A DNA stretch of 64,000 bases from Limisphaerales bacterium (GTDB taxonomy: Bacteria; Verrucomicrobiota; Verrucomicrobiia; Limisphaerales; JAEYXS01). Position 1 is the stretch's first letter; each line of letters starts with the position of its first letter. The notes beneath the pieces are model-generated. The model made no database searches, was not told where the DNA came from, and saw nothing but the letters and a program-made list of their open reading frames with translations. The position numbers and the translations under genes were made by a program. Below, one piece after another: positions 10,867 through 57,672 of the stretch. The DNA lies in assembly GCA_965283725.1 (NCBI GenBank), contig CBDIPT010000002.1, forward strand, positions 537,354 through 601,353, read 5' to 3'.

Positions 10867-12147
10867 ATGGATGAAGTGATGCAGGCAAAAGGCTGGCTCC
10901 TCGGTGTGATGCTGGCTTGTGCGCTCGCCGCCGGTTGGACCGGTTGGCGCTGGGGCGCGCGGCTTTTCCCGTCACCTGCATGGCGGACTTGGGGGCGTGT
11001 CTTTCTCGGTGGCCTCTTGTTGCTCATCAGTTTCGATGCCTTGCGTGAGGTGATGGCTTCGCCCAGCAACAATTGGAACGGTCCACGTCTCACGCCTTCG
11101 TTCACGCTCGTCAGTTCTTATCATTCTTACTACGGCTCCGATGCCGGACCGGTGTCGGGCAATATCTATGGGCCCGGTTTGGCCATCGCTTACTTGCCTT
11201 GTGTGTTGTGTTCCAGCCCGGAGTCGGCCATCCGCTGGGGCGGAGTGCTGAGCGCCTTGTGGTTGTTTCTGCCGGCGATGCTGCTTTTGCGACGCTTTAC
11301 GAACACGCAAGTGAACGAAACGGGCCGTTGGCTTCTGCTGGCGTTGGGATTCTATTGGCTGGTGACGAATCCCTTCTGGCTGCGGCAAGTCGCCTTCAAT
11401 GTGCACGCGGATGCGCCCGCCATCGGCTTAGGTCTGTGCGCCTGTTTGTTTGCGTTGCGGCTGGCGGAGAACGGCCGGACTTCGGACCTGATTCTTACGG
11501 CGCTCTTCACCCACGCCAGTGTGGCGACCAAACAAACTCTGCTGCCGTTGCTCGTGGTCATACCGGTATGGTTGTGGTTGCGTGGTCAGCGACCGCTAGC
11601 ATTGAAGCTGCTTTGCGTCAGTGCTGTCACCGGGGCGGCGTTGTGGCTCGTGATTGCGCTGGCTTATGGCTGGTCCGCTGTGTGGTTCAATCTCGTTTAC
11701 ATTCCCGGTCATCATCCTTGGTACGAGACGGTGGGGCGTGTCTCGGGAGTGGCGAACGTGACCACGGCACATCGCATCGCGGTCTTGGGCGAAGCGTTCA
11801 TCGATTATGTCCTGTCCAATGGCTGGCTCTGGCTGGTGCTTTTCTTGGCGGCGATTTTTGGCCGCAAACATCTCTCGCTACGGCGACCCGATTTCAAATC
11901 ACCTAGTTCACTGCTCTTCCTCGCCGGTCTGCTGCTCGTTCCCATGTCTCTGTTAGGCCGGGTCAAAGTGGGGGGAGATTATAACGCCTTCAGTTATTCC
12001 GCGGTGTTTCTGTCGCTCGCCACTGTGATGCTTTTGTATTCAGCCATTTCTCGATTTACTCCGACCTTTAGCCTCTCGCTCTCGCCCAGTTCACATCGGT
12101 TGATTTTGGTCGCGACGGTTTCGGTCTTCGCTCTCAGCCCTGGTTAA
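10867..12147 (+). CDS. polytopic membrane protein (ArnT/PMT-like glycosyltransferase architecture suspected, function not established)
   Basis: 426-aa ORF with many hydrophobic spans. No catalytic motif that I can name with confidence. Confidence 0.6.
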   Translation: MDEVMQAKGWLLGVMLACALAAGWTGWRWGARLFPSPAWRTWGRVFLGGLLLLISFDALREVMASPSNNWNGPRLTPSFTLVSSYHSYYGSDAGPVSGNIYGPGLAIAYLPCVLCSSPESAIRWGGVLSALWLFLPAMLLLRRFTNTQVNETGRWLLLALGFYWLVTNPFWLRQVAFNVHADAPAIGLGLCACLFALRLAENGRTSDLILTALFTHASVATKQTLLPLLVVIPVWLWLRGQRPLALKLLCVSAVTGAALWLVIALAYGWSAVWFNLVYIPGHHPWYETVGRVSGVANVTTAHRIAVLGEAFIDYVLSNGWLWLVLFLAAIFGRKHLSLRRPDFKSPSSLLFLAGLLLVPMSLLGRVKVGGDYNAFSYSAVFLSLATVMLLYSAISRFTPTFSLSLSPSSHRLILVATVSVFALSPG

Positions 12148-14900: not shown

Positions 14901-15407
14901 TTATTCAGGTAAATCTACGGCCGCGACGGCCATGGCGGCGATGCCTTCTTCCCGGCCGATGAACCCCATGTGTTCATTCGTGGTCGCCTTCAAGCCGATT
15001 TTCTTCGGTTCCATGCCCAAAGCGGCGGCGATATGCAGCTTCATCGCGGGGAAATGTGGCCCCAGCTTCGGTGCCTGCGCGATCAGCGAGGCATCGATAT
15101 CGATGATGCGCCCGCCGCGCAACTTCACCTGCCGCGCCGCTTCCTCGAGGAAGATCCGGCTCGGCGCACCCTTCCAGCGCGGGTCCGTGTTCGGGAAGAA
15201 CTGCCCGATGTCCCCTTCGCCCAGCGCACCCAACACCGCATCACAGATGGCGTGCATCAAGGCATCGGCATCCGAATGCCCGTCCAAACCCTTCGTGTGC
15301 GGGATATCCACCCCGCCGAGGATCAGTTTGCGCCCTGCCACCAGTTGATGCACATCGTAACCAGTACCCACATGAATCATGCCGCTAATTTGGAGCCCAT
15401 ACGCCAT
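14901..15407 (-). CDS. ispF: 2-C-methyl-D-erythritol 2,4-cyclodiphosphate synthase
   Basis: GTGYDVHQL...GGVDIPHTKGLDGHSDADALMHAICDAVLGA is the canonical IspF zinc/substrate motif set. Confidence 0.92.
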   Translation of the reverse strand: MAYGLQISGMIHVGTGYDVHQLVAGRKLILGGVDIPHTKGLDGHSDADALMHAICDAVLGALGEGDIGQFFPNTDPRWKGAPSRIFLEEAARQVKLRGGRIIDIDASLIAQAPKLGPHFPAMKLHIAAALGMEPKKIGLKATTNEHMGFIGREEGIAAMAVAAVDLPE

Positions 15408-15431
15408 TACCGCAAGCTGTAACCTTTATTC

Positions 15432-15458
15432 GTAGCCGCCGAGGTAACGAGGCGGAAC
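15432..15458. repeat. 27-nt intergenic repeat family R1 (GTAGCYGCCGASGTRASGAGGCRGAAC)
   Basis: gtagccgccgaggtaacgaggcggaac. Related copies at 23943-23980, 24016-24043, 35846-35872 and 36345-36371, plus an inverted copy at 36391-36417. Confidence 0.8.
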
Positions 15459-15724
15459 TAACTAAGGCCCACCATCGTCCTGAACTCCGCGCCGTCAGGT
15501 CGGGGCGTGCTCGTCGTCGTCCTTCGTCCTCGAATCAAGCCGAGCGCCGGTCTCCGACCCGGCGAGTCACTTTATAACGGGAGGGACCGCGTACCGCGGT
15601 CCCATGCCAATCCTTTCCCGTTTGACGAAACACCGGCACCGGCGTAACTAAAAACCCATGAATAAGGACGTTTTTTCATCAATTGCGGGCGGAAGCCATT
15701 ACCCAACAGAGCCGACTTTTTGTG

Positions 15725-15743
15725 GTCTAACAATCTGTTAGGC
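15725..15743 (+). repeat. minimal palindromic core site gtctaac-aatct-gttaggc (possible collapsed attC or array boundary)
   Basis: GTCTAAC fits RYYYAAC and GTTAGGC fits GTTRRRY. They are 5 nt apart, 9 nt upstream of the GTG start at 15753. Confidence 0.4.
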
Positions 15744-15752
15744 CCTAATACA

Positions 15753-16196
15753 GTGAAAACCATCAGCTACGATATTGATTCCCTAGCGGTTCCGGTCTCG
15801 TCGTTAGCAGTAGTCCCAATGAACTTCGGTCAGCCACGTCTTTGGGAAGGGCGTGCGACAAGTCGCTACGTGTTACAAGTGCCAGTTGATGAGATTTACC
15901 AGATACTGTCTAAAAGCTATGCCGATTATCTAGACGACGCGCTTCGATATCCTGATCCGGATTGTCAATTGGATCAGTCCTTGTCTCGTTTGAGTTGGCC
16001 ACCGCTTGAGAAGCTTGCCGCTCAGGCCCCGGACACGTTTCAAGAGTTGATGGCATTCTATGACTACGACATTTTGCTTTCGATCGAGTCGCGACATTCT
16101 TCCCGTTCGTTTACTCACGTGATTGTTTGTGTAGACGAAGTCGTTTACAGGGATGAATGCGTTCGGTTGGCTGGTATTGTTGTTCCATTGAGATGA
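15753..16196 (+). CDS. hypothetical protein (cassette-like ORF)
   Basis: The ORF-track frame 15720-16196 is trimmed to the GTG at 15753 just after the GTTAGGC core (VKTISYDIDS...). No motif recognised. Confidence 0.55.
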   Translation: MKTISYDIDSLAVPVSSLAVVPMNFGQPRLWEGRATSRYVLQVPVDEIYQILSKSYADYLDDALRYPDPDCQLDQSLSRLSWPPLEKLAAQAPDTFQELMAFYDYDILLSIESRHSSRSFTHVIVCVDEVVYRDECVRLAGIVVPLR

Positions 16197-16206
16197 TAAA
16201 TTATAG

Positions 16207-16314
16207 ACCTAACAAATCGCTGTGGCCTACACGGGATGGCGCTGGCAGTTCCGTCCTGCACTGCGGGGTGGTTGAAATCCCAAGTCTGGCATGGCTGGGT
16301 TTGCGGCGTTAGTG
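16207..16314 (+). repeat. attC-like site (acctaac ... gttagtg)
   Basis: R''-like ACCTAACAAATCG begins 10 nt after the stop at 16194-16196. R'-like GCGGCGTTAGTG ends 12 nt before the ATG at 16327. Confidence 0.45.
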
Positions 16315-16326
16315 ATACTCAATGCC

Positions 16327-16623
16327 ATGCATCGGCTTTATCACGACTTCAACAAGCTCTTTCCGGGTAAGGCACCGGGGATGCGTTCTGCGCCACTTAT
16401 ATGCGTGGGCACGCGAGAGGACCTCGAAGCTTTAAACATCACGCTCCAAGACGGTATGGGAGTAATGCTTTATCAGCCGGATGATATTGCGTCTGACGGT
16501 TCGGCTGACTGGTTAGAGGTGCGAGCAACGATCAGGTTTGATCAGGAGGCCCAGTGCTTTATGGGTGACTTTATCTGGGACGAGTTGAAATATCGCTCCG
16601 AGGCTCAAGCAGAGAGGAAATGA
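16327..16623 (+). CDS. hypothetical protein (cassette-like ORF)
   Basis: Frame of ORF 16291-16623. The internal ATG at 16327 (MHRLYHDFNKLF...) lies just past the GTTAG core. Confidence 0.55.
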   Translation: MHRLYHDFNKLFPGKAPGMRSAPLICVGTREDLEALNITLQDGMGVMLYQPDDIASDGSADWLEVRATIRFDQEAQCFMGDFIWDELKYRSEAQAERK

Positions 16624-16627
16624 AGCC

Positions 16628-16706
16628 GCCTGACCACACGCTGCAGCGAACCCGGCGTGAGCGTCGTGTTTGCAGTTCATGTGTCTCGAGTGCCGGATCG
16701 CTAAGC
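16628..16706 (+). repeat. degenerate attC-like site (gcctgac ... gctaagc)
   Basis: Its start GCCGCCTGACCACAC is homologous to the start of the 25008 site (GCCGCCTAACCACAC). The 3' core is degenerate. Confidence 0.3.
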
Positions 16707-17020
16707 GGTTTTGTGTGATTACCAGCTTCAAGAGATCGACATCGACAGTTCGTCGTGCTGTTTTGCTAACGGCGTTGGCCTTGGTTTCGTTCGCCATTCC
16801 GATAATCTGGACTTTCGTGTTCCGACTTTACGCGCAAGGATTCGGATTGTTTGTCGTGTTATACTTCATCTTCGCCATCCCAGCAACAGTCGTATCGATC
16901 ATTGCGAGCCGACGGCGGGAGTGGCAGCACCCAGACGGAGGCAAGCGTTTGCTGCTCGCATTTTACAGCTCACCCATTATCATGATTTTATTGTTGGCAG
17001 GATGGGCTTTGAGGAGGTGA
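16670..17020 (+). CDS. small hydrophobic membrane protein, hypothetical
   Basis: Three hydrophobic spans (LLTALALVSFAIPIIWTFVF, FGLFVVLYFIFAIPATVVSIIA, LLLAFYSSPIIMILLLAGWAL). The true start is uncertain and may be the TTG inside the ORF. Confidence 0.5.
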   Translation: MQFMCLECRIAKRFCVITSFKRSTSTVRRAVLLTALALVSFAIPIIWTFVFRLYAQGFGLFVVLYFIFAIPATVVSIIASRRREWQHPDGGKRLLLAFYSSPIIMILLLAGWALRR

Positions 17021-17094
17021 GTGTTTTGCCATCAAACATTTGCGACAATCCCTTACATTCAAGACATTAAATTCTCAAACGGCTGCCGGATAAC

Positions 17095-17595
17095 ATGACG
17101 TTCCCCACGACCCAATTCACCTACCGCGTGACCAGCGCCGAGAGCCTGGACGCCATCCGCCCGCTGTGGGAACAGCTCCGGGCTTATCATGGGCAACTAG
17201 CCTCGCCTTTCGCCGATGAGATGGGGCGTGTTACATTCGAGGCGCGCAAACAGGAACTGCTCACCAAATCCACCAATGGGACGCTGCAGATCGAATTAGT
17301 CAGCACGGCTTCAGATGCAATAGACATCGCCTACTGTGTCAGCACCGTCTCGGCAGGAGGGCGAGGGGAGATTGATTCGCTCTTTGTGGATGCCCGTTTT
17401 CGCGGGCAAGGGATTGGCAGCGAACTCATTCGTCATGCGTTGACTTGGCTGGATGGCATGGGCGCGATGACAAAGGTCGTGTCCGTTGCCTATGCCAATG
17501 AAGAGGCGCTCGCGCTTTACCGCCGTTTTGGTTTTCAACCCCGCACGGTTTTGCTGCAACAGCTGCAGAAAGGCGGACAAACCGTTACGCAATGA
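17095..17595 (+). CDS. GNAT family N-acetyltransferase
   Basis: 166-aa ORF with the acetyl-CoA motif A: FVDARFRGQGIGSELIRHALTWL. Confidence 0.8.
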   Translation: MTFPTTQFTYRVTSAESLDAIRPLWEQLRAYHGQLASPFADEMGRVTFEARKQELLTKSTNGTLQIELVSTASDAIDIAYCVSTVSAGGRGEIDSLFVDARFRGQGIGSELIRHALTWLDGMGAMTKVVSVAYANEEALALYRRFGFQPRTVLLQQLQKGGQTVTQ

Positions 17596-17629: not shown

Positions 17630-17909
17630 ATGAGAGCTTTAGCGCGCATATTGGTGGTGATTGGAATACTGAATTTCGCCAGTTTTTGGATAATTAGTTT
17701 GCTCCTTGGTGGAGATGCCACAGGCACCAAGATAGTCGATGGGAAGTATTTTGTCTCCGAGCATGGTCGTCAGAGAGGTGTCGCGTGCCTTCTATGAGTA
17801 TAGTCTGTTTCATACTCGTTCTGTCTGGGTTACCCATCCGTTGGCGTTGATTGGTGTTTGTCTTTTGCTGCAAGAGAATCAAGGACAGAAAACCAAACCT
17901 GCGGCATAG
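17630..17909 (+). pseudogene. small membrane protein gene split by a frame change near 17770-17780
   Basis: ATG 17630 gives MRALARILVVIGILNFASFWIISLLLGGDATGTKIVDGKYFVSEHGRQ..., with a stop at 17795-17797. The +1 frame continues [32 protein letters not shown] to a stop at 17907-17909. Confidence 0.35.
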
Positions 17910-18022
17910 CTATTTGCTGTGGTGATTACCGGTTGTCGAAGTCTCCATCTTTCGTCTCTCCCGCCATTGACTTGAGGGCTTCTTCATCCATAGTAACCCC
18001 CACTTTAAATTTGGAGAAAATT

Positions 18023-19159
18023 ATGGCGGCGAAAACGATTGAAAAGAATCCCCCGGCGGAAACTAAAGCAACGGAAAAAGCGGTAGAGAAAGCAGACAAG
18101 GCAGCCGATAAAGCCGCCGAAAAAGCGCTCGAAAAGACCGCCGAAGACAGCAAGTTGAAAGCGGCCCGCAATCGCGAGCTGGATGCCGCGATCGCGACGA
18201 TCACCAAGACTTTCGGCGAAGGCAGCATCATGCGTCTCGGCGATGCCCGCGCGCAGACGAAGATTGATGTCATTCCTACGGGCGCTTTGGCGCTCGACCT
18301 CGCCCTCGGCGTCGGCGGTTTGCCGCGCGGTCGTATCATCGAGATCTACGGTCCGGAATCCTCCGGTAAGACGACGCTCATGTTGCACGTCATCGCCAAT
18401 GCCCAAAAGGCCGGCGGTCTCGCGGCGTTCATCGATGCGGAACATGCCTTGGACCCCGCTTACGCCAAGAAGCTCGGCGTGAACTTGGACGACCTCCTCG
18501 TTTCGCAGCCGGACAGCGGTGAAGAAGCGCTGACCATTTGCGAAACCTTGGTCCGTTCCAACGCGCTCGACGTCATCGTCATCGACTCCGTTGCCGCGCT
18601 TGTGCCCAAGTCCGAACTCGAAGGCGAGATGGGCATGGCCACGATGGGTATGCAGGCGCGGTTGATGCAGGCGCTGCGCAAGCTCACGGCCATCCTGAGC
18701 AAAGCCAAGACGACGTGTATCTTCATCAACCAGCTCCGCGAAAAAGTCGGCGTCATGTTCGGCAGCCCCGAGACGACCACAGGCGGTAAGGCACTGAAGT
18801 TCTACGCCTCTGTGCGTATCGATATCCGTCGCAAAGACGCGTTGAAGGATGCCGCTGGCGCGGCCATCGGTAACCACGTGAAGTGCAAGATCGTGAAGAA
18901 CAAGATGTCCCCGCCGTTCACCGAAGCGGAGTTCGATATCATGTTCAACCACGGTATCAACAAGGAAGGCTCCATCCTGCAAGTGGGCACGGACTTGGGC
19001 GTCATCGAGAAGAAGGGCGCGTGGCTCCAATTCAATGGCGAACTTATCGGCCAAGGCAAAGATGCCGCCGCGAAGGCACTCGCTGAGAAGCCTGACCTGC
19101 AGAAGAAGATCGTGGAAGCCATCTTGGTCAAGCACACCGAGAACAAGAAGGTGGCCTAA
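18023..19159 (+). CDS. recA: recombinase RecA
   Basis: GGAG lies 7 nt before the ATG at 18023. [10 protein letters not shown], Walker [11 protein letters not shown], and the L1/L2 region [19 protein letters not shown]. Confidence 0.93.
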
Positions 19160-20363: not shown

Positions 20364-21518
20364 ATGAGTCATCTTGCTGTGCCTGATTTGCCGGGAACCT
20401 TTGCTTCTTCCGGCAGTATATCGTCGTTTCGCCCACCGGCCGCGGCCATAGATACCAATGGGGTTCAAGGTGGGTTGCAGCACATCGATGTGCTGGCGCA
20501 TTCGATGTCCGAGCAATTGCGGAAAGCCATCCGCGAGATCGATGACATCAACTTGCAAACGCGGATACTCGCCTTCAATGCCCAGATCGAAGCCGCGCGG
20601 GCGGGGACCCAAGGTGCCGCTTTCGGTGTGGTCGCCAGCGAGATGGTTCGTCTCTCGCAAAATACTACTGCCACGGCCACAACCATGGGTGCGGAGACGA
20701 ACCGGAGCATCAGCGAAATGACCCGGCTGATCGGTGAGGTGGGCGCGGCCATGCGTGGCACCCGGCTTTCCGATCTGGCGCTCACAAATATCGAGCTGGT
20801 GGATCGCAATCTCTATGAGCGCTCCTGCGATGTCCGCTGGTGGGCCACAGACAGCAGTGTGGTGGACGCTTTGGAAAAAGAGGACGAAGCCACGCGCCGG
20901 TTCACTTGCAAGCGGCTGGGTGTCATTTTGGATTCCTACACCGTTTATTATGATTTGGTGGTGTGTGATCTGAAAGGCCAGGTGGTTGCCAATGGCCGGC
21001 CAGACCGTTACGGCTCCATCGGCAGCAACCAATCTACCACCACTTGGTTTCAAGCTGCCCTCGGCACGCGTGACGGTACCCAGTTCGGCTTTCAATCCGT
21101 CCACCGGTCTTCGTCCCTCGCCGGTGGTGAGTTCATTTTGGTTTACTCCTGCGCCATCCGGGAAGAAGGCAAAGTGAATGGCCGGCCGATTGGGGTGCTG
21201 GGCATCGTCTTCAATTGGGAAAGCCTCGCCCAGACCATCGTGCGCAATACCCAGATCAGTGCAGCGGAGAAATCGTGCACCCGTGTGTGCATGGTGGATG
21301 ATACCGGGCTGGTCTTGGCCGATACCGCGAATAAATTGGTCACTGAGAAGCTGACGCTGCCGGATCAAAGCAACCTCTTCCGGCAGAAAAAGTCCTTTTG
21401 CACAGTCAGTTACCAAGGGCGCCCGCACATCATCGCTCACGCGTTGTCCCCGGGCTTTGAGACCTACGCTACAGGCTGGCATTCTTTGGTCATCCAGCCG
21501 GTAACTTTGGGCCATTGA
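20364..21518 (+). CDS. soluble protein with a short MCP signalling-hairpin segment followed by a PAS/Cache-like sensor region
   Basis: INLQTRILAFNAQIEAARAGTQGAAFGVVASEMVRLSQNT matches the conserved MCP hairpin tip. No TM segment seen. The start codon is uncertain. Confidence 0.6.
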   Translation: MSHLAVPDLPGTFASSGSISSFRPPAAAIDTNGVQGGLQHIDVLAHSMSEQLRKAIREIDDINLQTRILAFNAQIEAARAGTQGAAFGVVASEMVRLSQNTTATATTMGAETNRSISEMTRLIGEVGAAMRGTRLSDLALTNIELVDRNLYERSCDVRWWATDSSVVDALEKEDEATRRFTCKRLGVILDSYTVYYDLVVCDLKGQVVANGRPDRYGSIGSNQSTTTWFQAALGTRDGTQFGFQSVHRSSSLAGGEFILVYSCAIREEGKVNGRPIGVLGIVFNWESLAQTIVRNTQISAAEKSCTRVCMVDDTGLVLADTANKLVTEKLTLPDQSNLFRQKKSFCTVSYQGRPHIIAHALSPGFETYATGWHSLVIQPVTLGH

Positions 21519-23938
21519 CGCCAGCCGTTAATTCGCTGCCCCTGCTTGTGTTTTGCCACCGTACGCGTATGGTGGCGGAGCATGTTATCCAAGGTTTTTG
21601 CCGCCAGTCGTATCGCGTTCGTTTGCGGCGCGCTGTTGTTAAGCGTTCCGGCCAGGCTCAGACCACTGAGCCGCTGGCGGGAACGAAGGCCTTGACCCTG
21701 CAAGGCGACCTCTCGGAGCAGATGGTCGCCGGCATCAGCAAATACCTGGATCGCGAAGCCGCTGCTTCCATCGAAGGCCGCGCCCGCTTCTGGAAACCGG
21801 ATTTCTCCAACCGCGCCTTCTACAACCAGTCGGTGCAAGCCAATCGCGACAAACTGGCGGAGATCATCGGGGCCGTGGATCAACGGGTGCCCAAGGTGAA
21901 CCTCGAATACGTCGCCACGACTTCTTCCCCGGCCAAGGTCGCTGAGACAGATCGCTTTGTCGTTTATGCGGTCCGGTGGCCGGTGTTCGATGACGTCACG
22001 GGCGAGGGGTTGCTCTTGCTTCCCAAAGGGCGGCTGGCCGCGCGCATCGTCGCGATTCCCGATGCGGATCAAACGCCCGAGATGATTGCCGGGCTGGCAC
22101 CGGGTCTGCCCGTCGAGCTGCAATACGCGCGCCGGCTGGCGGAGAATGGCTGCCAGGTGTTGATCCCCACGCTCATCAGCCGTTCGGACACCTTCTCGGG
22201 CAACCCGCGTTTGAACCGCTTTACCAACCAGCCGCATCGCGAATGGATTTACCGGCAGGCCTACGAACTCGGCCGTCATATCATCGGCTACGAAGTGCAG
22301 AAAGTGCTCGCGGCCGCCGATTGGCTGACCAGTCAGGCGAAGGACCAGAAGTCCGATGTGGAACTCGGCGTGATGGGTTACGGCGAAGGCGGGTTGATCG
22401 CGTTTTACAGCGCGGCCCTTGATACCCGGTTCAACGCCAGCTTCGTCAGCGGCTACTTCGGCAAACGCGAGAAACTCTGGAACGAACCGATTTACCGGAA
22501 TCTCCACGGCTTGCTGCCACAGTTCGGTGATGCCGAGATCGCGACCCTCATCGTTCCCCGTGTGTTCATGGCCGAGCATTCGCCCACGCCAGACGTCAAA
22601 GGCCCGCCCGCGGAACGCCCCGGTCGCGCCGGTGCCGCTCCCGGCAAGATCGAGCCGCTGGAATTCAATGACGTGGACGCCGAGATGAATCGCGCCCGGC
22701 AATTGGTCTCCGAAGCGTTCCGTCCCGCACTCATCTTTTTCTACGGCAACGAAGGCAAGACCATGGGGCCGATCGGCGAGATCGGCGTGCTGGGCATGCT
22801 GCAAGCCCTGCGCATCAACACGGACACCTTGCGTCCGCCGGGCTCGCAGCCGACGGAAGGCCGCCCCAATTTCAACCCGGAAGAACGGCAGGAACGCCAG
22901 GTGCGCGAACTGGAACGCCACACGCAACGTCTGCTGCAACTCGCCGGCAGTGTGCGGGAAGATTTTCTGTGGAACCGCGTGAAGCCGAATTCCACCAACG
23001 AGTGGCAAGCCGCCATGCGTCCGTTTCAAGCCAAGCTCTGGGATGACGTCATCGGCCGCCTGCCCAAAGGCACCAACGACCTGAACCCGCGCTCGCGCAA
23101 GATCTACGACAAACCGAAATGGACCGGCTACGAAGTCGTGCTGGATGTCGCGCCAGATATCTACGCGTGGGGTTATCTGCTTTTGCCCAAAGGCCTGAAG
23201 CCCGGTGAGAAACGGCCCGTCGTGGTTTGCCAGCACGGGCTCGAGGGCGTGCCGGAAGATGTCTTGAACGAGAACTTGGAGAGCAAACCCTACGGCTACT
23301 ACAAGGCCTTCGCCGCCCGCCTGGCCGAGCGCGGCTTCATCGTCTTCGCACCGCATAATCCCTATCGCGGCAAGGACGCCTTCCGCGAGTTGCAACGCAA
23401 AGCGAACCCGCTCGGCAAGTCACTCTTCTCCGTCATCCTCGCCCAGCATGATCGCATCCTGGACTGGCTCAGCACCCAGCCGAACGTGGACCCGCAACGC
23501 ATCGCCTTCTACGGCCTCTCCTACGGTGGCAAGACCGCCATGCGCGTGCCCGCTTTGCTGGACCGTTACTGCCTCTCCATCTGCTCTGGTGACTTCAACG
23601 AATGGATCTGGAAAAACGTCACCACCGATTGGCGCAGCAGCTATATGTTCACTGGCGAATACGAGATGCCCGAATTCAACCTCGGCTCCACCTTCAACTA
23701 CGCCGAGATGGCCGCCCTGATCGCGCCGCGCCCGTTCATGGTCGAACGCGGTCATAACGACGGCGTCGGCTTGGACGAATGGGTGAGCTTCGAATACGCG
23801 AAGGTGAAACGCCTCTACGACAAGCTGAAGATCCCGCAAGCCACCGAGATCGAATACTTCGATGGCCCGCACACCATCAACGGGCAGGGGACATTCAAAT
23901 TCCTGCACCGGCAACTGAACTGGCCGGAACCGAAGTAG
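21515..23938 (+). CDS. tandem alpha/beta-hydrolase (dienelactone hydrolase / S9-like) protein; signal peptide encoded in a different frame (21582-21653)
   Basis: The second domain has YGLSYGGKTA (GxSxG). The first domain has GYGEGG at the equivalent elbow. ATG 21582 encodes MLSKVFAASRIAFVCGALLLSVPA, one base out of frame with QAQTTEPLAG.... Confidence 0.8.
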   Translation: MTPAVNSLPLLVFCHRTRMVAEHVIQGFCRQSYRVRLRRAVVKRSGQAQTTEPLAGTKALTLQGDLSEQMVAGISKYLDREAAASIEGRARFWKPDFSNRAFYNQSVQANRDKLAEIIGAVDQRVPKVNLEYVATTSSPAKVAETDRFVVYAVRWPVFDDVTGEGLLLLPKGRLAARIVAIPDADQTPEMIAGLAPGLPVELQYARRLAENGCQVLIPTLISRSDTFSGNPRLNRFTNQPHREWIYRQAYELGRHIIGYEVQKVLAAADWLTSQAKDQKSDVELGVMGYGEGGLIAFYSAALDTRFNASFVSGYFGKREKLWNEPIYRNLHGLLPQFGDAEIATLIVPRVFMAEHSPTPDVKGPPAERPGRAGAAPGKIEPLEFNDVDAEMNRARQLVSEAFRPALIFFYGNEGKTMGPIGEIGVLGMLQALRINTDTLRPPGSQPTEGRPNFNPEERQERQVRELERHTQRLLQLAGSVREDFLWNRVKPNSTNEWQAAMRPFQAKLWDDVIGRLPKGTNDLNPRSRKIYDKPKWTGYEVVLDVAPDIYAWGYLLLPKGLKPGEKRPVVVCQHGLEGVPEDVLNENLESKPYGYYKAFAARLAERGFIVFAPHNPYRGKDAFRELQRKANPLGKSLFSVILAQHDRILDWLSTQPNVDPQRIAFYGLSYGGKTAMRVPALLDRYCLSICSGDFNEWIWKNVTTDWRSSYMFTGEYEMPEFNLGSTFNYAEMAALIAPRPFMVERGHNDGVGLDEWVSFEYAKVKRLYDKLKIPQATEIEYFDGPHTINGQGTFKFLHRQLNWPEPK

Positions 23939-23942
23939 CAAT

Positions 23943-24043
23943 GTAGCCGTCCCTCATACGGAATCAGGAGGCGGAACTGACTAACCGTGTGGGAAGCTTA
24001 GCTGAAACGTCCCCCTTAGCTGCCGAGGTGACGAGGCTCAAAC
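23943..24043. repeat. two R1-family repeat copies
   Basis: gtagccgtccctcatacggaatcaggaggcggaactgac at 23943-23980, and tagctgccgaggtgacgaggctcaaac at 24016-24043. Confidence 0.7.
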
Positions 24044-24112
24044 CTGCTACCCTCAAGTGTCACCCATCTCCTCGGAACGTGCCGTAGCAATCGGCATCCT
24101 GGAGGGATGAAA

Positions 24113-24322
24113 GAAAGTAGCCGGTTGGTTGAGCGAGGCACGAGCGATACCACCGGTTAGCTGGCAAAAAGAACAGCACTCTGAAGGAGTGCTAGAAATC
24201 AGGATGATAGGAGATGTTCTGGCATCCCTTCAGGATGCGGTTTCTAGAGCACAGTTTTCCGGAGGTATCACCCGTAAAACGGGTTCAACCTCCTGCTACT
24301 TTCTCTCAACCCTCCGGGTTGA
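24113..24322. repeat. ~190-nt multi-hairpin structured element, copy A (possible ncRNA or MITE-like repeat)
   Basis: Closing helix 24113-24121/24295-24303. gatacc/ggtatc 24146-24151/24264-24269. Hairpins at 24175-24193, 24222-24238, 24270-24284 and 24306-24322. Same order as copy B at 32531-32714. Confidence 0.6.
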
Positions 24323-24449
24323 AAACGTATCAGGGTAGTCAGTACCAGTACGCCCGCCGCCACTCCTAATCCTTTTATAATCTTCCCGGCCATCAAACCC
24401 ATTTGACGAACTCCCCGCCCCATGGCTTATTAAGCCCTGTGACCAAGGC

Positions 24450-24526
24450 GCTTAACATCGATACAGTAACCCATATCCCATATGGAACAATGCCGAATCA
24501 TTTCCCCCGCTATTAGCATGTTAGGC
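24450..24526 (+). repeat. attC-like site (gcttaac ... gttaggc)
   Basis: GCTTAAC fits RYYYAAC and GTTAGGC fits GTTRRRY. The site ends 21 nt before the ATG at 24548. Internal pairing is weak. Confidence 0.35.
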
Positions 24527-24547
24527 GTTTTCTCGCGTGCTGTGAGA

Positions 24548-25000
24548 ATGAAGAGTCTGAGTATTGCTGTTGTTGTTTTGCTCGCGACATGGTCGGTGTT
24601 TGCCGCCGAGTCGACAGCTCAGATTCGCCTGGGTGCTCCTGCTCACATCAAAGCCCCGCCTGGTAGCGCGACTGCTGGCAGCACTTGGATTGAGTTTTCA
24701 GTAAGCGTAACGAATATCACGAAGCGATCCATATGGTTTCATGGCTATTCACTTAGTTCCCCCTTCTACAGCCTTTTCACCCGCCAGATTAATTCTGCCA
24801 ATTGGACTGACCGAGGCGTAGGTTTCTGCGGCACTGGTGCTGGCATTTTTGAGCTTCCGGCTGGCGCTGCCACATCTTTCACCGTCGCTGTACCCGAGCG
24901 CTACGTCGGCGAGCAGCTTCGGGTCGAGTTGGCCGTTCTGGCTTCACCGAAGGATTTGAAGGGTATTTCTGTCTCCAGCGAGGCAGCCTCTATCAAATGA
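24548..25000 (+). CDS. secreted hypothetical protein (cassette-like ORF)
   Basis: Internal ATG of ORF 24482-25000. Signal peptide MKSLSIAVVVLLATWSVFAAES. Confidence 0.6.
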   Translation: MKSLSIAVVVLLATWSVFAAESTAQIRLGAPAHIKAPPGSATAGSTWIEFSVSVTNITKRSIWFHGYSLSSPFYSLFTRQINSANWTDRGVGFCGTGAGIFELPAGAATSFTVAVPERYVGEQLRVELAVLASPKDLKGISVSSEAASIK

Positions 25001-25007
25001 CACCGCC

Positions 25008-25109
25008 GCCTAACCACACACCGCCATGTCTTGCCAACGTGTCCGCTGAAGCCTTGAGCGCAGGCGGATGGGTCGGGGTTCCCGCGGCTGCGGGATTGGG
25101 TCGTTAGCT
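25008..25109 (+). repeat. attC-like site (gcctaac ... gttagct)
   Basis: Begins 7 nt after the stop at 24998-25000 and ends 13 nt before the ATG at 25123. gcctaaccac pairs with gggtcgttagc leaving one bulged base. Confidence 0.5.
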
Positions 25110-25122
25110 CGCATCACGTGCC

Positions 25123-25524
25123 ATGAGAAACCGAAAGAGTTCACTACTTTTCTCGTTCATTGCTGCTGGCTTGGTAGTCGTTGGCGTTGGAGTGTGGCTT
25201 TTCTTTGGTGATTCCATTCGTGAGCGATTGAGTCGTCAGCGGTTTGACCCGGTGGCGTGGAAGACGGACGACCGCAGCTACACGAACGCGGTCAGGATTC
25301 GGATGGTGGATGATCTCTTGCAGCGCCACAGTTTTCGAGGCATGACACGTGAGCAGGTTGTTGCCCTAGTTGGAGAGCCAGACAAGACGGAGTATTTCAA
25401 AGAGTGGGACTTGGTTTACTGGCTGGGTCCAGAGCACGGATTCATCAGCATGGATTCGGAATGGCTGGTTTTCCACCTCGACAGCCAGAAGAAAGTCACA
25501 GACTTGAGGATTGTGGGGGATTAA
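25123..25524 (+). CDS. membrane-anchored small protein, BamE/SmpA-OmlA-like (weak)
   Basis: N-terminal TM segment SLLFSFIAAGLVVVGVGVWLFF. GMTREQVVALVGEPD resembles the BamE-like fold signature. Confidence 0.6.
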   Translation: MRNRKSSLLFSFIAAGLVVVGVGVWLFFGDSIRERLSRQRFDPVAWKTDDRSYTNAVRIRMVDDLLQRHSFRGMTREQVVALVGEPDKTEYFKEWDLVYWLGPEHGFISMDSEWLVFHLDSQKKVTDLRIVGD

Positions 25525-25532
25525 ATGATGAC

Positions 25533-25643
25533 ACCTAAACATACACCGCCATGTCTTGCCAACGTATCCGCTGAAGCCTTGGAGAAAGTGGAAGCTCTGA
25601 GCGCAGGCGGATGGGCCCGGCCGCTGTGCTGTTATCGTTAGAC
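25533..25643 (+). repeat. attC-like site (acctaaac ... gttagac)
   Basis: Begins 8 nt after the stop at 25522-25524. GTTAGAC fits GTTRRRY, 18 nt before the ATG at 25662. The internal acaccgccatgtcttgccaacgtatccgctgaagccttg is shared with the 25008 site. Confidence 0.5.
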
Positions 25644-25661
25644 CGATCAAGCACCACCACT

Positions 25662-26186
25662 ATGGACGATAAAGAGAAAATCGAAGCACAGATTACCTCG
25701 GCATTTGCGGTTGTGGAGTATCCTGGTGATTGGTGCTTGCGAGACAGCAACGAGGGAGATGAGCCTTACTTGGTGGAGAAAGAGTTCAGAGGAAAGACCG
25801 ACTGGCGTGTTCTTGACCCGAAGTTTCTCGACCAAGCGCCCGACGGATACGGTTCGGCACTCAGCTTCTTTTCGGACGAGGCATTTCACTTCTACCTTCC
25901 GGCTTACATGATTGCCGACGTTCGCGGACAGTTGGAGCGGGTCGACCCGGTTCACCACCTGACTCACGGTCTTGACGAGGCGTCGAGATGCGAGCGCATC
26001 AACCCACGCCGCTATGGCGAGCGGACGTGGTTCGAACATGCGCGGCACAAGTTTGCCATTTTCAGCCGCGAAGAGACGGCAGCGATTATCGGCTACCTCA
26101 CCCTACGAAAAGATGCTTACGACTTCGAGCACCAGAGGATTGATGAGGCGTTGAAAAACTATTGGCATGAACGGGCGGCCTCCTGA
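25662..26186 (+). CDS. hypothetical protein (cassette-like ORF; resembles immunity-type DUF proteins)
   Basis: Internal ATG of ORF 25611-26186 (MDDKEKIEAQITSAF...). The string ALSFFSDEAFHFYLPAYMIADV recalls DUF6714-type proteins, from memory only. Confidence 0.6.
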   Translation: MDDKEKIEAQITSAFAVVEYPGDWCLRDSNEGDEPYLVEKEFRGKTDWRVLDPKFLDQAPDGYGSALSFFSDEAFHFYLPAYMIADVRGQLERVDPVHHLTHGLDEASRCERINPRRYGERTWFEHARHKFAIFSREETAAIIGYLTLRKDAYDFEHQRIDEALKNYWHERAAS

Positions 26187-26235
26187 GCAACTACCCGCGC
26201 CACTCAACTCTCAACCATCATCTATCAACCAATCC

Positions 26236-27408
26236 TCACCCCGTGATCACCCCAAACACCCCCGTGGAACCAAACACCCGCGCGTGTTCGATCTGCACAT
26301 ACCGATCCGTCATGCCCGCCAGATAGTCACAGACAGTGCGCTGCCAGCCTAGTTTGCGGGCGCGCTTGCGAAACTGCTCGCCGATCTCTTTGTGATGCTT
26401 GAGGTAGTGGTGGAACAACTCCTCCAGCATCGCCACGGCGCGCATGTTGGGCTTATGGACGACCGGGTTGTAATAAAGATTCGTGTAAAGATACTCGCGC
26501 AGCTCGATGTTCAGGTCGCGCCGTTCCTCGCTGTAACGCACCAGCGGGTTTTCCTGCAAGCGCACGTCATCCGCTGACTTCACACCCGCTGAGGTGATCA
26601 ATTCCTCCGCCATCGTCACCACATCCCGCACCTGGTCATCAATGATACAGCGAATAGTGAAATAACGGCGCCGTTCGTCATCGAGCGACCCGTGCAATTT
26701 CTTCACGACCTTCGCCGCCTGCGCCCACACACGCACGTTCTTCTTCAGATCTTTCTCGTTCAGCAAACCCGCTTCCAGCCCATCATCCAGATCGTGGCTG
26801 TAATACGTGATCTCATCCGCGAGATTCGCCACCTGTGCTTCGAGCGAAGACGACTTCGCATCGAACCCCTTACGTTTGCTCGGGTGATCGTAGCTGGTGT
26901 AATGCTTCACTAACCCCTCGCGCACTTCCCACGTCAGATTCAGTCCAGGAAAGCCCGGATACTTGTGCTCCAGCTCCTCGACGATGCGCAGGCTGTGGCG
27001 ATTGTGCTCAAACCCGCCGTGATCTTTCATCAGGCGGTTCAACACATCTTCGCCTTTATGGCCGAAAGGGGAGTGGCCGAGGTCGTGGGCGAGGGCGATG
27101 GTCTCCGCGAGGTCTTCGTTGATCTGGAGGGCGCGTGCGATGTTACGGCTGATGGCCGCCACTTCCATCGTATGCGTCAGCCGCGTGCGATAGTGATCGC
27201 CCTGTCCATTGAGGAAAACTTGGGTCTTATATTCGAGGCGACGAAACGCGCGGGAATGGATGACGCGATCGCGATCCCGCTGATATTGGGTGCGCCATTC
27301 GGGCGGGGCTTCCCTGTATTTCCTCCCCCGGCTGTCGGCGGAGAATTGCGCGTAAGGTGCCAGCACCAGCTTTTCGCGCTTTTCCAGATCCTGAAGGCTG
27401 CAAGCCAT
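26236..27408 (-). CDS. dgt: dGTPase-like HD-domain triphosphohydrolase
   Basis: RDRDRVIHSRAFRRLEYKTQVF, DHYRTRLTHTMEV and LAHDLGHSPFGH are the canonical dGTPase family motifs. Confidence 0.9.
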   Translation of the reverse strand: MACSLQDLEKREKLVLAPYAQFSADSRGRKYREAPPEWRTQYQRDRDRVIHSRAFRRLEYKTQVFLNGQGDHYRTRLTHTMEVAAISRNIARALQINEDLAETIALAHDLGHSPFGHKGEDVLNRLMKDHGGFEHNRHSLRIVEELEHKYPGFPGLNLTWEVREGLVKHYTSYDHPSKRKGFDAKSSSLEAQVANLADEITYYSHDLDDGLEAGLLNEKDLKKNVRVWAQAAKVVKKLHGSLDDERRRYFTIRCIIDDQVRDVVTMAEELITSAGVKSADDVRLQENPLVRYSEERRDLNIELREYLYTNLYYNPVVHKPNMRAVAMLEELFHHYLKHHKEIGEQFRKRARKLGWQRTVCDYLAGMTDRYVQIEHARVFGSTGVFGVITG

Positions 27409-31161: not shown

Positions 31162-31518
31162 TTATGCCGCCACCTTACGAGGAAAGCAATCAGCCACTGT
31201 TTTCGAAATGCCAGCAGCTAAGGAAATCAGGAAAGCGCTCCATCTCCCTCGCCCCTCGGAGGGGAGAGGGCCGGGGTGAGGGGTGCCCCCTTTCCCATTG
31301 CCGCTTTCAAAATTCGCGAACTCCAAAACCGTAACCGCCTGCTCACGGGTGACATCAGGAAAGCACTTCAAGTAATCGTCGAGGCTCAGGCCGCTTTCGA
31401 GGTTGGAAAAAAGGCTCTCCACCGGAACGCGCGTGCCCACGAAGCAAGGCGCTCCGCTCATCCGTTGCGGGTCCACCCACACCGGCAATCCTGCTGGCAC
31501 TGTCCAGTTCGTATCCAT
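31162..31518 (-). CDS. DUF433-domain protein (antitoxin-like HTH), 3' end reads through a GC-rich palindromic repeat
   Basis: VDPQRMSGAPCFVGTRVPVESLFSNLESGLSLDDYLKCFPDVTREQAVTVLEFA matches the DUF433 pattern. The last ~40 codons (…PHPGPLPSEGRGR…) overlap the repeat at 31244-31285. Confidence 0.65.
   Translation of the reverse strand: MDTNWTVPAGLPVWVDPQRMSGAPCFVGTRVPVESLFSNLESGLSLDDYLKCFPDVTREQAVTVLEFANFESGNGKGGTPHPGPLPSEGRGRWSAFLISLAAGISKTVADCFPRKVAA
31244..31285. repeat. GC-rich palindromic repeat (ctccctcgcccctcggaggggagagggccggggtgaggggtg)
   Basis: An imperfect hairpin at 31246-31270 followed by ccggggtgagggg. This sequence type recurs in many bacterial intergenic regions (from memory). 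Confidence 0.6.
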
Positions 31519-31567: not shown

Positions 31568-32443
31568 TCAGAGAACGACCTCAGTGCCCACGCCGGCATC
31601 CGTGAAAACCTCCACGATGACCGCGTGATTCATGCGGCCATCCACGAAGGACACCTTGTCCACGCCTGCCTTCACGGCGGCCACGGCGCTGTCGACCTTG
31701 GGGATCATGCCTTTGTCGATGATACCCGCTTTCTTGAGGTCGGCGACTTCCTTGGTGGCGAGATGTGAGATAACCGTGCTCGGATCTTTGAAGTCACGCA
31801 TCAATCCCGGCACATCGCTCATGAAGATGAGCCGCTTCGCCTTGAGCGCGATGGCCACCATCGCCGCCGCCACGTCGGCGTTGCAGTTGTAAACCTTGCC
31901 GTCTGTGCCGAGCGCCGTCGGGCTGATGATGGGCGTCACGCCGCGGTCGATGCATTCCAGCAACGGCTCCACGTTCACTTTCACCACTTCGCCGACATAG
32001 CCGATATCGATCTTCTGACCGTCGGGTCCATCAAGAAGCAGCTTCTTGCAGGTGAAAATTTCTGTGCCAGCGAAACCTTGTGCGACACCGCCGAGACGAT
32101 TGATCGTCCGCACGATCTCTGGATTGATTTCGCGCGAGAGCACTTGGTCCACCACGGCAACGGTTTGTTCGTCCGTCACGCGCTGGCCTTGGATGAACTC
32201 CGCCTTGAGGCCGGACTTGTCCATGGCGCGGGTGATGGCCTTGCCGCCGCCATGCACCACCACGGGGTTGATCTCCACGGCCTCGAGGAACACGATGTCG
32301 CGCGCCACGCCATTGCGCACCGCCTCATCGGGCGAGTCCATGAAGCTGCCGCCGTATTTCACGACAAACGTCGTGCCGCTGAATTTCTGGATGTAAGGCA
32401 ACGCTTCCAGCAACGTCGCCGCTTTAGAGATCAAATCCTGCAC
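31568..32443 (-). CDS. argB: acetylglutamate kinase
   Basis: FVVKYGGSFM..., VVVHGGG and NCNADVAAA are amino-acid kinase family / ArgB motifs. Confidence 0.92.
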   Translation of the reverse strand: MQDLISKAATLLEALPYIQKFSGTTFVVKYGGSFMDSPDEAVRNGVARDIVFLEAVEINPVVVHGGGKAITRAMDKSGLKAEFIQGQRVTDEQTVAVVDQVLSREINPEIVRTINRLGGVAQGFAGTEIFTCKKLLLDGPDGQKIDIGYVGEVVKVNVEPLLECIDRGVTPIISPTALGTDGKVYNCNADVAAAMVAIALKAKRLIFMSDVPGLMRDFKDPSTVISHLATKEVADLKKAGIIDKGMIPKVDSAVAAVKAGVDKVSFVDGRMNHAVIVEVFTDAGVGTEVVL

Positions 32444-32530
32444 GGCGGAATAAAAGGAACTCAGGGCAAACTTGGCAATAACGATTGTTGCCTATCAGGA
32501 TGTTTGTGCATCACGAAGTGATGCCAGAGA

Positions 32531-32714
32531 GCAGCCGGAGGTTGAGCGACCCAGGAGCGATACCTTCGGGCCGCGTGATAATAAGAAGCACTCTGAAGGA
32601 GTGCCAGAAATCTGCGATCCCGTAGGAATCGTTGGTTCCCTATAAACAGTTACGGAGGTATCGGCGTAGAACGCCTCAACCTCCGGCTACTGTCTGGCAA
32701 CCCTCTCGGGTTGC
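32531..32714. repeat. ~190-nt multi-hairpin structured element, copy B
   Basis: Closing helix 32531-32546/32675-32690. gatacc/ggtatc 32559-32564/32657-32662. Hairpins at 32588-32604, 32614-32631, 32663-32675 and 32697-32714. The last hairpin abuts the argJ stop codon. Confidence 0.6.
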
Positions 32715-34074
32715 TATGGCGCAAATATCTTTACCCCCAACGTCGTCGGGTCCGTCACATCACCCTTGTTGAAATCCACGTAATGCTCCGTCAGGTCGGC
32801 GGCATACATGAATGTCCCGGCCTTGCCGAGGTTCAGGTTGATGTGCAGTTCAAACTCTTTTGGTAACGCAGCGGCGCACAGGTCTTTGTAAGTCGCCTTC
32901 GTCGGCTGGCCGCGCTTGAGGCTCCAGAGAACTTTCTTCGCACCCGGCGCGCTGTAGCCGATGTCCACCTTCTCCTCCACGATCTTCGCCGAGCTGTAGC
33001 CGAGCGCATCGATAATACGGCCCCAGTTCGGGTCGCCACCGTGCCAGCTCGTCTTTACCAGCGCACTGTTCGCCACCGCACGCGCAGCCGCATCCGCATC
33101 CTGGATATTCTTCGCGCCATTCACGCGGACGGTTACCACGCGATGCACGCCTTCACCATCGCGCACGATCATCTTGGCAAGTTCGAGGCAAACATGATTC
33201 AAGGCCGCTTGGAACGTCTGGAAATCTTCGCTCTTTGTGCCCTTGATCAATTTGTTCTCCGCCAGACCATTCGCGAGGACGAGCACCGTGTCGTTCGTGC
33301 TCATGTCACCATCCACCGTGATGCGATTGAAACTGCCTGCCGTGGCTTCTTCCAAAGCGGCTTGTAGCGTCTTTGCTTCGATCGCCGCATCCGTAGTGAT
33401 GAAGCAGAGCATCGTGGCGTGGAGACCTGCGGGTATCCTTTAGGCAATGCCGCCGGACGCGCACCCGTCGCGCTCATACCCGGCTGGATCATGCCTGCGC
33501 CCTTGCACATGCCGCCCATGCGCACTTTCTTGCCGCCGAGCTTGAATTCGATCGCCACCTGCTTCGGCTTCGTATCGCTGGTCATGATGGCTTCCGCGGA
33601 TTCCGCCGCGTGTTGCACCTCGCTGCCGAGCAGTTGCAGAGCGTCATGGATGCCCGTGCGCACATTCTCCATCGGCATATTCACGCCGATACGGCCGGTG
33701 GAGCCGACCAAAACATGTTCCACCGGTAAGTGGAGCTGGCCCGCGACGAGCTTGGTCATGTCCAGCGCGTCCTTCATCCCTTGGCGACCGGTGCAAGCGT
33801 TCGCATTGCCAGAGTTCACCACCACGGCCTGGGCGATGCCCTTCTGCACACGCGGCACGCAGACCTTCACCGGCGCGGCGCAGATCTGGTTCGTCGTGAA
33901 CATGCCTGCCACGGTGCAGGGCACTTCGGAGACGATCACGGTGAGATCGCGCTTCTGACCTTTGTTGGAGCCTTTGCCGGTGCCGAGACGTTTGATGTCG
34001 CAGAACACGCCGGAGGTGAGAAAGCCTTGCGGCGCGACGATGGCGCCTTCCACTTGCTTGAACGATTTCTTCAT
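32714..34074 (-). pseudogene. argJ: bifunctional glutamate N-acetyltransferase/amino-acid acetyltransferase, frame broken within 33424-33439
   Basis: The N-terminal part is in ORF 33301-34161 (start MKKSFKQVEGAIVAPQGF at 34074; ...KGAGMIQPGM). The C-terminal part is in ORF 32714-33412, starting at the ATML self-cleavage motif (…LHATMLCFITTDA). Confidence 0.85.
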
Positions 34075-34153
34075 TAACTTTTTCTGCCGGTCGAAACCAG
34101 CGGGCGCAACGGAATCATGACGGGGCTCGGGTGTCAATGGGTGTGCAGAAGGT

Positions 34154-34188
34154 TTAACCACAGATTAACACAGATGGACGCGGATTAC
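34154..34188. repeat. GTTAACC-headed intergenic repeat (ttaaccacagattaacacagatggacgcggattac)
   Basis: Related to 51478-51512 (gttaaccgcagattgacatagatgaacacagattag). Confidence 0.7.
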
Positions 34189-57569: not shown

Positions 57570-57672
57570 CGCGCGTCAGGGCCCATGGAATGCGGACTTA
57601 CGAACCCCGCCAGGGCCGGAAGGCAGCAACGGTAGTTTGCTCTACATCTGCCGTGGTGTCCCTGACACTTCC
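57570..57672 (+). ncRNA. ffs: signal recognition particle RNA (small bacterial 4.5S type)
   Basis: ccagggccGGAAggcagcaacgg matches the SRP helix-8 apex (E. coli caggtccggaaggaagcagcc). The closing helix gtcaggg (57575-57581) pairs with ccctgac (57660-57666), and ccatgg pairs with ccgtgg. Confidence 0.75.

Follow-up and report, generated by a model that had tools for sequence, protein, structure and literature searches.

What kind of element is a run of three small open reading frames (ORFs), interleaved with two related sites of about 105 bp, that lies between an esterase gene and the dGTPase gene dgt on a Limisphaerales chromosome? The DNA in question is a stretch of 64,000 nucleotides of contig CBDIPT010000002.1 (positions 537,354 to 601,353), here called the window, and the run is the second of two such arrays that the window carries; we refer to it as array 2, and to the one between ispF and recA as array 1. 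A preliminary description, made from the sequence letters, proposed integron gene cassettes, and its site and ORF coordinates all agree with the sequence. Our analysis supports that interpretation: the sites trace to an attC family that adjoins TIGR02249 integrases and shows the G|TT crossover signature, and we put at roughly 0.8 the probability that the region is an integrase-less integron cassette array of the CALIN type (cluster of attC sites lacking an integrase), whose leader resembles attI and whose attC sites are degenerate.

The three ORFs of array 2 are small, promoterless and on the same strand (+), at 24548-25000 (best start 24548, stop codon 24998-25000), 25123-25524 (ATG at 25123, stop codon 25522-25524) and 25662-26186. 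Site A (25008-25109, +) runs from GCCTAAC (25008-25014) to GTTAGCT (25103-25109) between ORF1 and ORF2, and site B (25533-25643, +) runs from ACCTAAAC (25533-25540) to GTTAGAC (25637-25643) between ORF2 and ORF3. Each stands directly 3′ of an ORF in the same direction, beginning 7-8 nt past the stop codon and ending 13-18 nt ahead of the next ATG. That the two are homologous, as the preliminary description held, is borne out by a 48-nt block with 94% identity (25009-25056 against 25534-25581) and a 30-nt block with 87% identity (25048-25077 against 25591-25620), separated in B by an 18-nt insert. Both carry the inverse core ends of attC sites, R″ (RYYYAAC) and R′ (GTTRRRY), with two deviations: the sixth base of R′ in site A is C and not a purine, and R″ in site B has one extra A. 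Between these ends, site A consists of R″ GCCTAAC, an inner block that we call the X-block (GCCGACGTGTCCGCTGAAGCCTTG...AGCGCAGGCGGATGGG), a local hairpin TCCCGC-GGCT-GCGGGA, the spacer TTGGGTC and R′ GTTAGCT, while site B consists of R″ ACCTAAAC, the X-block with its 18-nt insert, an L′-like CCGCTGTGC, the spacer TGTTATC and R′ GTTAGAC. The L″/L′ stem is absent from site A, the L″ arm is absent from site B, and the two share the deletion junction ...CA(C/T)AC|ACCGCCATG even though their upstream ORFs are unrelated.

The expected preference for ORF boundaries was found. On the + strand of the window GTTAG[GAC] occurs 14 times, five of them at ORF starts of the two arrays, and CCTAA(A)C occurs six times, three of them just past ORF stops in the arrays; this placement is far above chance. 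The preliminary description had (G/A)CCTAA(A)C following each of the three ORFs, which holds for ORF1 and ORF2. The stop codon of ORF3 lies inside GGCCTCCTGAGCAAC (26177-26191, +), an R″-like remnant at the right end of array 2, and no 3′ half-site was found after ORF3. Motifs of the GGCCTCCTGAGCAAC type also open site s1 of the related contig L001 (GCCGCCTCCTGAGAAAC) and close the last cassette of the integron locus L020 (GGCCTCCTGAGTAAC). A 7-codon upstream ORF (ATGTCTTGCCAACGTRTCCGCTGA) conserved in A and B was considered and dropped, the copies in L001 being without it.

The strongest evidence for the nature of the sites comes from other genomes. When we searched the genome collection with an arm motif, TRACCANNNNCTGCAGCGAACCCGGCG, taken from the 5′ arm of an array-1 site, it matched more than 118 genome stretches, mostly from Verrucomicrobiota and Planctomycetota, with further hosts in Acidobacteriota and others; long contigs are among them, and so is the isolate Botrimarina hoheduenensis. 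The matches belong to a family of 93-nt sites that form arrays of up to seven copies at a spacing of 300-900 bp, and an alignment of 95 non-identical members has a mean column identity of 93%. The bottom-strand fold of canonical members (z-scores of -2.2 to -2.3; only 4-5 of 200 shuffled sequences fold equally well) has an R box of 7 bp and, beyond a 7/5-nt spacer that stays unpaired, a long stem whose ″ arm bulges out a single base in two places. At 15 loci of the family a strong homologue of the integron integrase IntI is encoded beside the array; the query was an IntI1 sequence, and the matches were then verified independently by NCBIfam, where all five checked pass the TIGR02249 "integron integrase" model (386-447 bits; cutoff 265). 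In the loci checked, intI is divergent from the array and the attI region lies between them.

The arrays also record how they were assembled. For 19 of 21 pairs of neighbouring sites, the four bases behind GTT in the first site form the reverse complement of the head of the second; among the informative pairs the match is to the head of the next site in 6/6 and to the site's own head in 0/6 (permutation p ~2e-4). Such a pattern is what integron crossover at G|TT leaves behind. The 93-nt family is a real attC family used by integrons across Verrucomicrobiota and Planctomycetota, and we did not find its sequence in the searchable literature. The preliminary description had suggested looking for a cognate tyrosine recombinase: there is none within the 64-kb window, and IntI is present beside arrays of the same family in other genomes. 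As observations on these loci, the 93-nt type stays ~93% conserved across phyla, in contigs of more than 100 kb and a Planctomycete isolate among others (L006-L123), and some titles of metagenome-assembled genomes among them (Klebsiella, Bifidobacterium) look like mislabels.

How do the window sites relate to this family? A covariance model, R1, built from the 93-nt family aligns over its full length (1-93) to the array-1 site at 16628-16719 (+) with 52.7 bits (E 9.9e-13), and this site, which retains the arm but has a degenerate R′, is the only statistically clear member among the four sites of the window. Site A is aligned by R1 at exactly 25008-25109, through its termini only (5′, 17 nt; 3′, 24 nt). 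The remaining steps go through L001, where the model gives 77.8 bits to site s5, and 33.3 bits to site s3 with a 45-nt insert at the position of the X-block. By BLAST, site A is 89% identical to s3 over 47 nt, site B is 85% identical to s4 over 95 nt, and both s3 and s4 retain the L″ arm. Because these two L001 sites carry both arms together with the X-block, A and B are variants of the larger family minus the 5′ L″ arm. The proposal of one site family for both arrays thus stands on R1 for 16628, on the termini for A and on L001 s4 for B, and the homology noted earlier between the start of the array-2 sites and the 16628 site is confirmed, CCGCCTAACCACAC matching 16626-16639 with one mismatch. 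The X-block itself is local: X-block sites (A, B, s3 and s4) serve four different cassettes in two genomes, a 22-mer of the A/B-specific block had no match in the genome and metagenome collections, and a degenerate X-block pattern had none in a metagenome scan.

Both arrays open with a homologous module of ~130 nt, in which a box CCCRTTTGACGAA is followed ~100 nt on by ...GCCGAnT...CTATTAnCATGTTAGGC. In array 2 the left edge of this leader (24392-24410, +) holds ATCAAAC, a degenerate R′-like box that reads GTTAAAC in L001 and overlaps a conserved box CCCATTTGACGAA, which includes the -35-like TTGACG. Further copies of the box, always heading cassettes, are at 15617 of the window and in L001 and L005, with two in each of these contigs. 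On our reading of the sequence, the TTGACG box may act as a promoter element; a sigma-70 promoter scan of the leader called no promoter. The third, weaker site of the preliminary description, GCTTAAC (24450-24456) to GTTAGGC (24520-24526), does exist (24450-24526, +) and is conserved twice in a related contig. It is the 3′ part of the leader, with an attI-like end GCCGAATCATTTCCCCCGCTATTAGCATGTTAGGC and a predicted crossover at G|TTAGGC. Its layout (palindrome, TAyTWAAn, TGTTAGGC) is that of the attI regions beside intI in L097, L083, L093, L054 and L022. Like attI sites, the leader ends in ...TGTTAGGC after a short palindrome and an AT-rich spacer, and new cassettes start directly after it. 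The leader ends in AGGC and site A begins with GCCT, its exact reverse complement, which gives the crossover signature from leader to A at 4/4 positions. As for what else marks an attI site, synteny breaks at 24538 in array 2 and at 15744 in array 1, and adjacency to intI is absent. A leader copy inside the L001 array stands directly after an R′ box GTTAAAC, and one in L005 after GTTAACC; the leader therefore behaves as a recombination-competent unit. In the attI regions of L097, L083, L093, L054, L022, L123 and L077 the palindrome differs in sequence from one integron to the next and stays palindromic; TGTTAGGC follows it after 8-10 nt, and the start of intI is only 40-100 nt from it.

A comparison with close relatives, defined as contigs with near-identical dGTPases (L001, L003 and L005), shows what has happened at the spot. 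The left flank of array 2 is the esterase gene (21515-23938, +) and the right flank is dgt (26236-27408, -; Pfam HD and HD_assoc), and the same flanks enclose other small ORFs in all three relatives. The dGTPase of L001 is 98% identical to that of the window and the flanks have 87% nucleotide identity, yet the L001 gap between esterase and dgt holds six different small ORFs, each followed by a site running from RYYTAAC to (G/A)TTAGRC or GTTAAAC. One of them, s5, is 93 nt long (GCTTAACCATGCGCTGCAGCGAACCCGGCG...GTCGCTGAGCTTGGGTCGTTAGGC) and folds end to end. Homology between the window and L001 continues through the esterase gene and the leader, stops at 24538, ~12 nt past GTTAGGC, and restarts at 26226 beside dgt. 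No cassette ORF is common to array 2 and L001; cassette content at this spot has turned over completely between relatives, which is the variation between strains that the preliminary description had proposed to look for. In array 1, the homology with L005 (15300-15744) likewise ends at the leader GTTAGGC, and a different ORF follows in L005. Canonical sites are also near at hand: one relative, whose dGTPase is 92% identical, carries them elsewhere in its assembly (contigs L107 and L117), and a complete integron with the 93-nt attC family is known from the same order (L097). Homologues of ORF3 in two unrelated contigs (L124, L128) both have GTTAGGC ~22 nt upstream of the ATG, and one of them lies within a long run of small same-strand ORFs.

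A number of results weigh against reading the region as an integron cassette array, and folding is the first. The preliminary description had named an absence of attC features in the single-stranded fold as grounds for doubt, and in A and B these features are indeed absent. The bottom-strand folds have z-scores of +0.2 for site A and +0.7 for site B against shuffled sequences; with both strands taken as single-stranded DNA, z is 0 or higher and there is no long hairpin. The hairpin of R box, spacer and L box with extrahelical bases, which canonical family members show, fails to form in A and B. The terminal pairing described earlier is present and weak, with 5-6 of 7 positions paired in the R boxes, and the folds are no better than those of shuffles. 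The array-1 sites fold no better either (z +1.6 at 16207-16314, z -0.01 at 16628-16719). Judged on the folding of the lone sites only, the attC reading of A and B looked weak. The family model gives site A 13 bits (E 0.77) and does not detect site B. The crossover signature from A to B holds at only 3/4 positions with a 1-nt indel, and after site B it fails, there being no GTCTAAC after ORF3. For the family at large, RNAalifold finds 0 compensatory pairs among the 95 members, because the 93-nt family is too conserved for covariation; structural support therefore rests on the energy z-scores and the architecture. An ad hoc score (8-position L stem, one bulge) did not separate canonical sites from shuffles and was discarded. 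In addition, the window ORFs of at least 70 amino acids hold no Phage_integrase, IntI or tyrosine-recombinase domain, tblastn of 11 IntI proteins against the window, L001, L003 and L005 gave no hit under E 0.3, and no intI remnant was found in these four sequences. Lastly, the dgt spot of L003 and L005 holds variable ORFs without recognisable attC.

The folding results bear on whether the sites are attC sites at all. If they were ordinary intergenic repeats, similar to repetitive extragenic palindromic (REP) elements, miniature inverted-repeat transposable elements (MITEs) or regulatory RNAs, with the CTAAC and GTTAG ends a coincidence, it would be natural that they do not fold like attC, and other repeat families do occur in the window, such as a 227-nt self-complementary element (24095-24321, with a copy at 32508-32713). 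We regard this as very improbable and largely refuted, since the 17 and 24 nt at the two ends of site A agree with the attC family exactly at the predicted boundaries, the L001 intermediates keep the full L″ arm, the sites lie strictly after ORFs, synteny breaks at GTTAGGC, and Rfam gives no relevant match at gathering or E-value thresholds; Rfam contains no attC family. All four window sites are degenerate copies. A and B look degenerate, and at best served in trans, because they fold without attC features and no integrase lies in the window.

The variable ORFs without attC in L003 and L005 bear instead on how the differences between relatives arose; they mean that the spot is variable by other means too. 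The differences could stem mainly from homologous recombination in the flanks that swapped whole islets, with the cassettes passive and no role for an integrase here. Apart from L003 and L005, such an exchange would fit an observation in L001, where the 3′ end of dgt is duplicated (11662-11801 against 11039-11180, corresponding to 26230-26369 of the window; 142 nt, 90% identity) around an extra ORF of ~100 amino acids, at a junction that is not integron-like. It does not predict that the left break falls within ~12 nt of GTTAGGC in both arrays, in two different comparisons, nor that an R′ box immediately precedes the leader copy in the L001 array, and we hold flank exchange to be an unlikely main cause.

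Clusters of attC sites without integrase, and integrons in Verrucomicrobia, were reported by Cury et al. 2016 (PMC4889954), so that the earlier phrase of a phylum in which these systems are poorly described is only partly apt. CALINs are defined as two or more attC sites within 4 kb with no intI nearby, and 95% of them have no recognisable intI pseudogene within 10 kb (PMC4889954; IntegronFinder 2, PMC9024848). Array 2 resembles them in having at least two cassette sites within 4 kb, small promoterless same-strand ORFs and neither intI nor an intI pseudogene. It differs in that A and B are without the L-box stem, in that an attI-like leader heads the array, and in that CALIN class is normally set by the attC model of IntegronFinder, while here the probable assignment comes from the family model R1 and from comparison.

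We therefore picture the history of array 2 as follows. Cassettes would have been inserted at G|TTAGGC of the leader by an IntI encoded elsewhere, which is the most likely route of delivery. Sites A and B descend from the 93-nt attC family of true integrons; they have lost the 5′ L″ arm, they carry a lineage-private inner block, and the bulged hairpin recognised by IntI no longer forms. At present A and B are probably relics that are active little or not at all.

The shared junction of A and B and the presence of the X-block on four cassettes speak against full decay, and could reflect either function or gene conversion. Taken as function, they would make A and B working non-canonical attC sites, in which a truncated R″-X-block-R′ form is recombined in trans by a cognate IntI. 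On this reading it makes sense that one 5′ deletion junction follows unrelated ORFs, a single truncated form serving two of them, and the X-block sites on four cassettes in two genomes and the perfect crossover signature from leader to A would fit as well. We find it distinctly unlikely, given that there is no hairpin beyond the R boxes (z 0 or above), that the L″ arm is absent, that the X-block is found nowhere else (0 metagenome matches), and that gene conversion between neighbouring sites also accounts for the shared junction. A more far-reaching proposal, which we hold to be just as doubtful, is that the leaders, with their TTGACG box and ...TGTTAGGC, are integrase-less "satellite" platforms fixed at ispF-recA and esterase-dgt in the Limisphaerales/Pedosphaera lineage, that an IntI encoded elsewhere loads them in trans, and that truncated X-block sites are working attC variants without the L-box stem.

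Read as an integrase-less array, the locus can be set beside other known systems. Homogeneous attC families are a feature of sedentary chromosomal integrons, for example the Vibrio cholerae repeats and those of Xanthomonas. The family described here shares with them a single attC type for many unrelated cassettes and the architecture R″-L″...L′-R′, in which extrahelical bases lie on the ″ arm, as well as crossover at G|TT. Unlike them, it spans several phyla at ~93% identity and not one genus, and, on our reading of the alignment and folds, the extrahelical base of its L box is C (bottom strand) where it is usually G. Taxon-specific attC models, and attC types tied to taxon and environment, are the subject of Ghaly et al. 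(PMC8352920). The leader copy inside the L001 array recalls attI sites and the unusual delta-attI-type cassettes of mobile integrons (PMC12901181); it differs in that the window leader has no adjoining intI and in that the same leader heads two arrays 9 kb apart, both beside core genes. The spread of cassettes outside integrons was reported by Loot et al. (bioRxiv 10.1101/2022.09.11.507474), and cassette insertions at genomic attG sites and isolated cassettes (SALIN) resemble the window in placing cassettes outside a complete integron, in the chromosome and beside housekeeping genes. They differ in that insertion here is at a conserved attI-like module common to relatives and not at an arbitrary site.

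The element type is thus already known, and the understanding of integrons is unchanged. What the array adds is an extension of documented cassette arrays to a Verrucomicrobial lineage that is Pedosphaera-like, as the named homologues of its dGTPase indicate, with exact breakpoints that show full cassette turnover at a core-genome spot between relatives with 87% flank identity. By-products are the cross-phylum 93-nt attC family with its IntI partners and a candidate attI-like leader without an adjacent integrase. Integrase-less attI-like leaders and truncated X-block sites are modestly novel. Standard attC models were trained mostly on Proteobacteria, and the family and the leader could aid integron annotation in bacteria of the Planctomycetes-Verrucomicrobia-Chlamydiae (PVC) group.

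The cargo of array 2 had been labelled as a secreted protein, a BamE-like anchored protein and an immunity-like protein with a domain of unknown function (DUF). ORF1 (150 amino acids) does have a hydrophobic, signal-like N-terminal segment, and its protein has no match in Pfam, PADLOC or PDB. ORF2 (133 amino acids) has an N-terminal transmembrane segment and a weak BamE-like stretch, which remains below the Pfam cutoff (PF04355, E 0.0018, 18.5 bits against 23.2); every PDB match has E > 0.2, so none is significant. ORF3 (174 amino acids) is a DUF6714 protein, as its label of a DUF protein implied (PF20461, E 9.9e-13, 48.8 bits, cutoff 27), with 801 homologues, of which the best listed share 60-88% identity and are named in several phyla. 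The array cargo gave no defence-system match in PADLOC and no PDB match of significance, and an exact-protein search with ORF2, ORF3 and the dGTPase returned no contig. The motif GCC(G)CCTCCTGAG-N-AAC stands at cassette ends at 26177-26191 of the window, at ~14387 of L001 and at ~1105 of L020; in L001 it opens a short hairpin site (GAGAAAC...GTTTCTC) that may represent another attC type of shorter length.

Array 1 lies between ispF (14901-15407, -) and recA (17858-19159). Its leader (15617-15743, +) runs from the box CCCGTTTGACGAA (15617-15629) through GGTCTAACAATCTGTTAGGC, with GTTAGGC at 15737-15743, and its cargo (15753-17595, +) comprises ORFa (15753-16196), ORFb (16327-16623), a small ORF with a transmembrane segment (~16714-17020) and a GNAT acetyltransferase (17095-17595; Pfam GNAT, E 4.5e-15). 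Besides the 16628 site, it contains a degenerate site running from ACCTAAC to GTTAGTG (16207-16314, +), which comparison of its core, GGATGGCGCTGGCAG, places in a second attC subfamily; the same core occurs in an attC of canonical architecture within the large L082 array and in array 1 of L005. The acetyltransferase is 62% identical to an ORF of the integron locus L020, where the GNAT-like ORF lies beyond the last recognisable attC.

Some further features of the window may be noted. The ~227-nt repeat at 24095-24321, a 68% match to its own reverse complement, lies a short way ahead of the array-2 leader and has copies at 32508-32713 between argB and argJ, in L005 (4678-4883) and in L089 (5565-5626). 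It gives a weak, sub-threshold match to the Rfam Acido-Lenti-1 RNA (21.7 bits, E 0.049), and could be a MITE or a structured RNA. The argJ ORF (32443-34161) beside the second window copy encodes only 286 amino acids, covering positions 10-167 of 377 in the Pfam profile, where the ArgJ of L001 has 448 amino acids; a frameshift, a pseudogene or a disruption beside the repeat could account for this. In the same cluster a DUF433 gene (31162-31518) stands between the aminotransferase gene and argB; relatives carry a Uma2 gene, a methyltransferase or no extra gene in the arg cluster, which makes this another small variable spot. A hairpin motif, GCCGCCGAGGTRACGAGGCGG, follows convergent or terminal genes at 15425-15465 and 24010-24045 of the window and at gene ends in L001 and L005; it could be REP-like, or a terminator that lacks the T-run. 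Finally, a bacterial small signal recognition particle RNA is encoded at 57574-57670 (Rfam RF00169, 70.5 bits).

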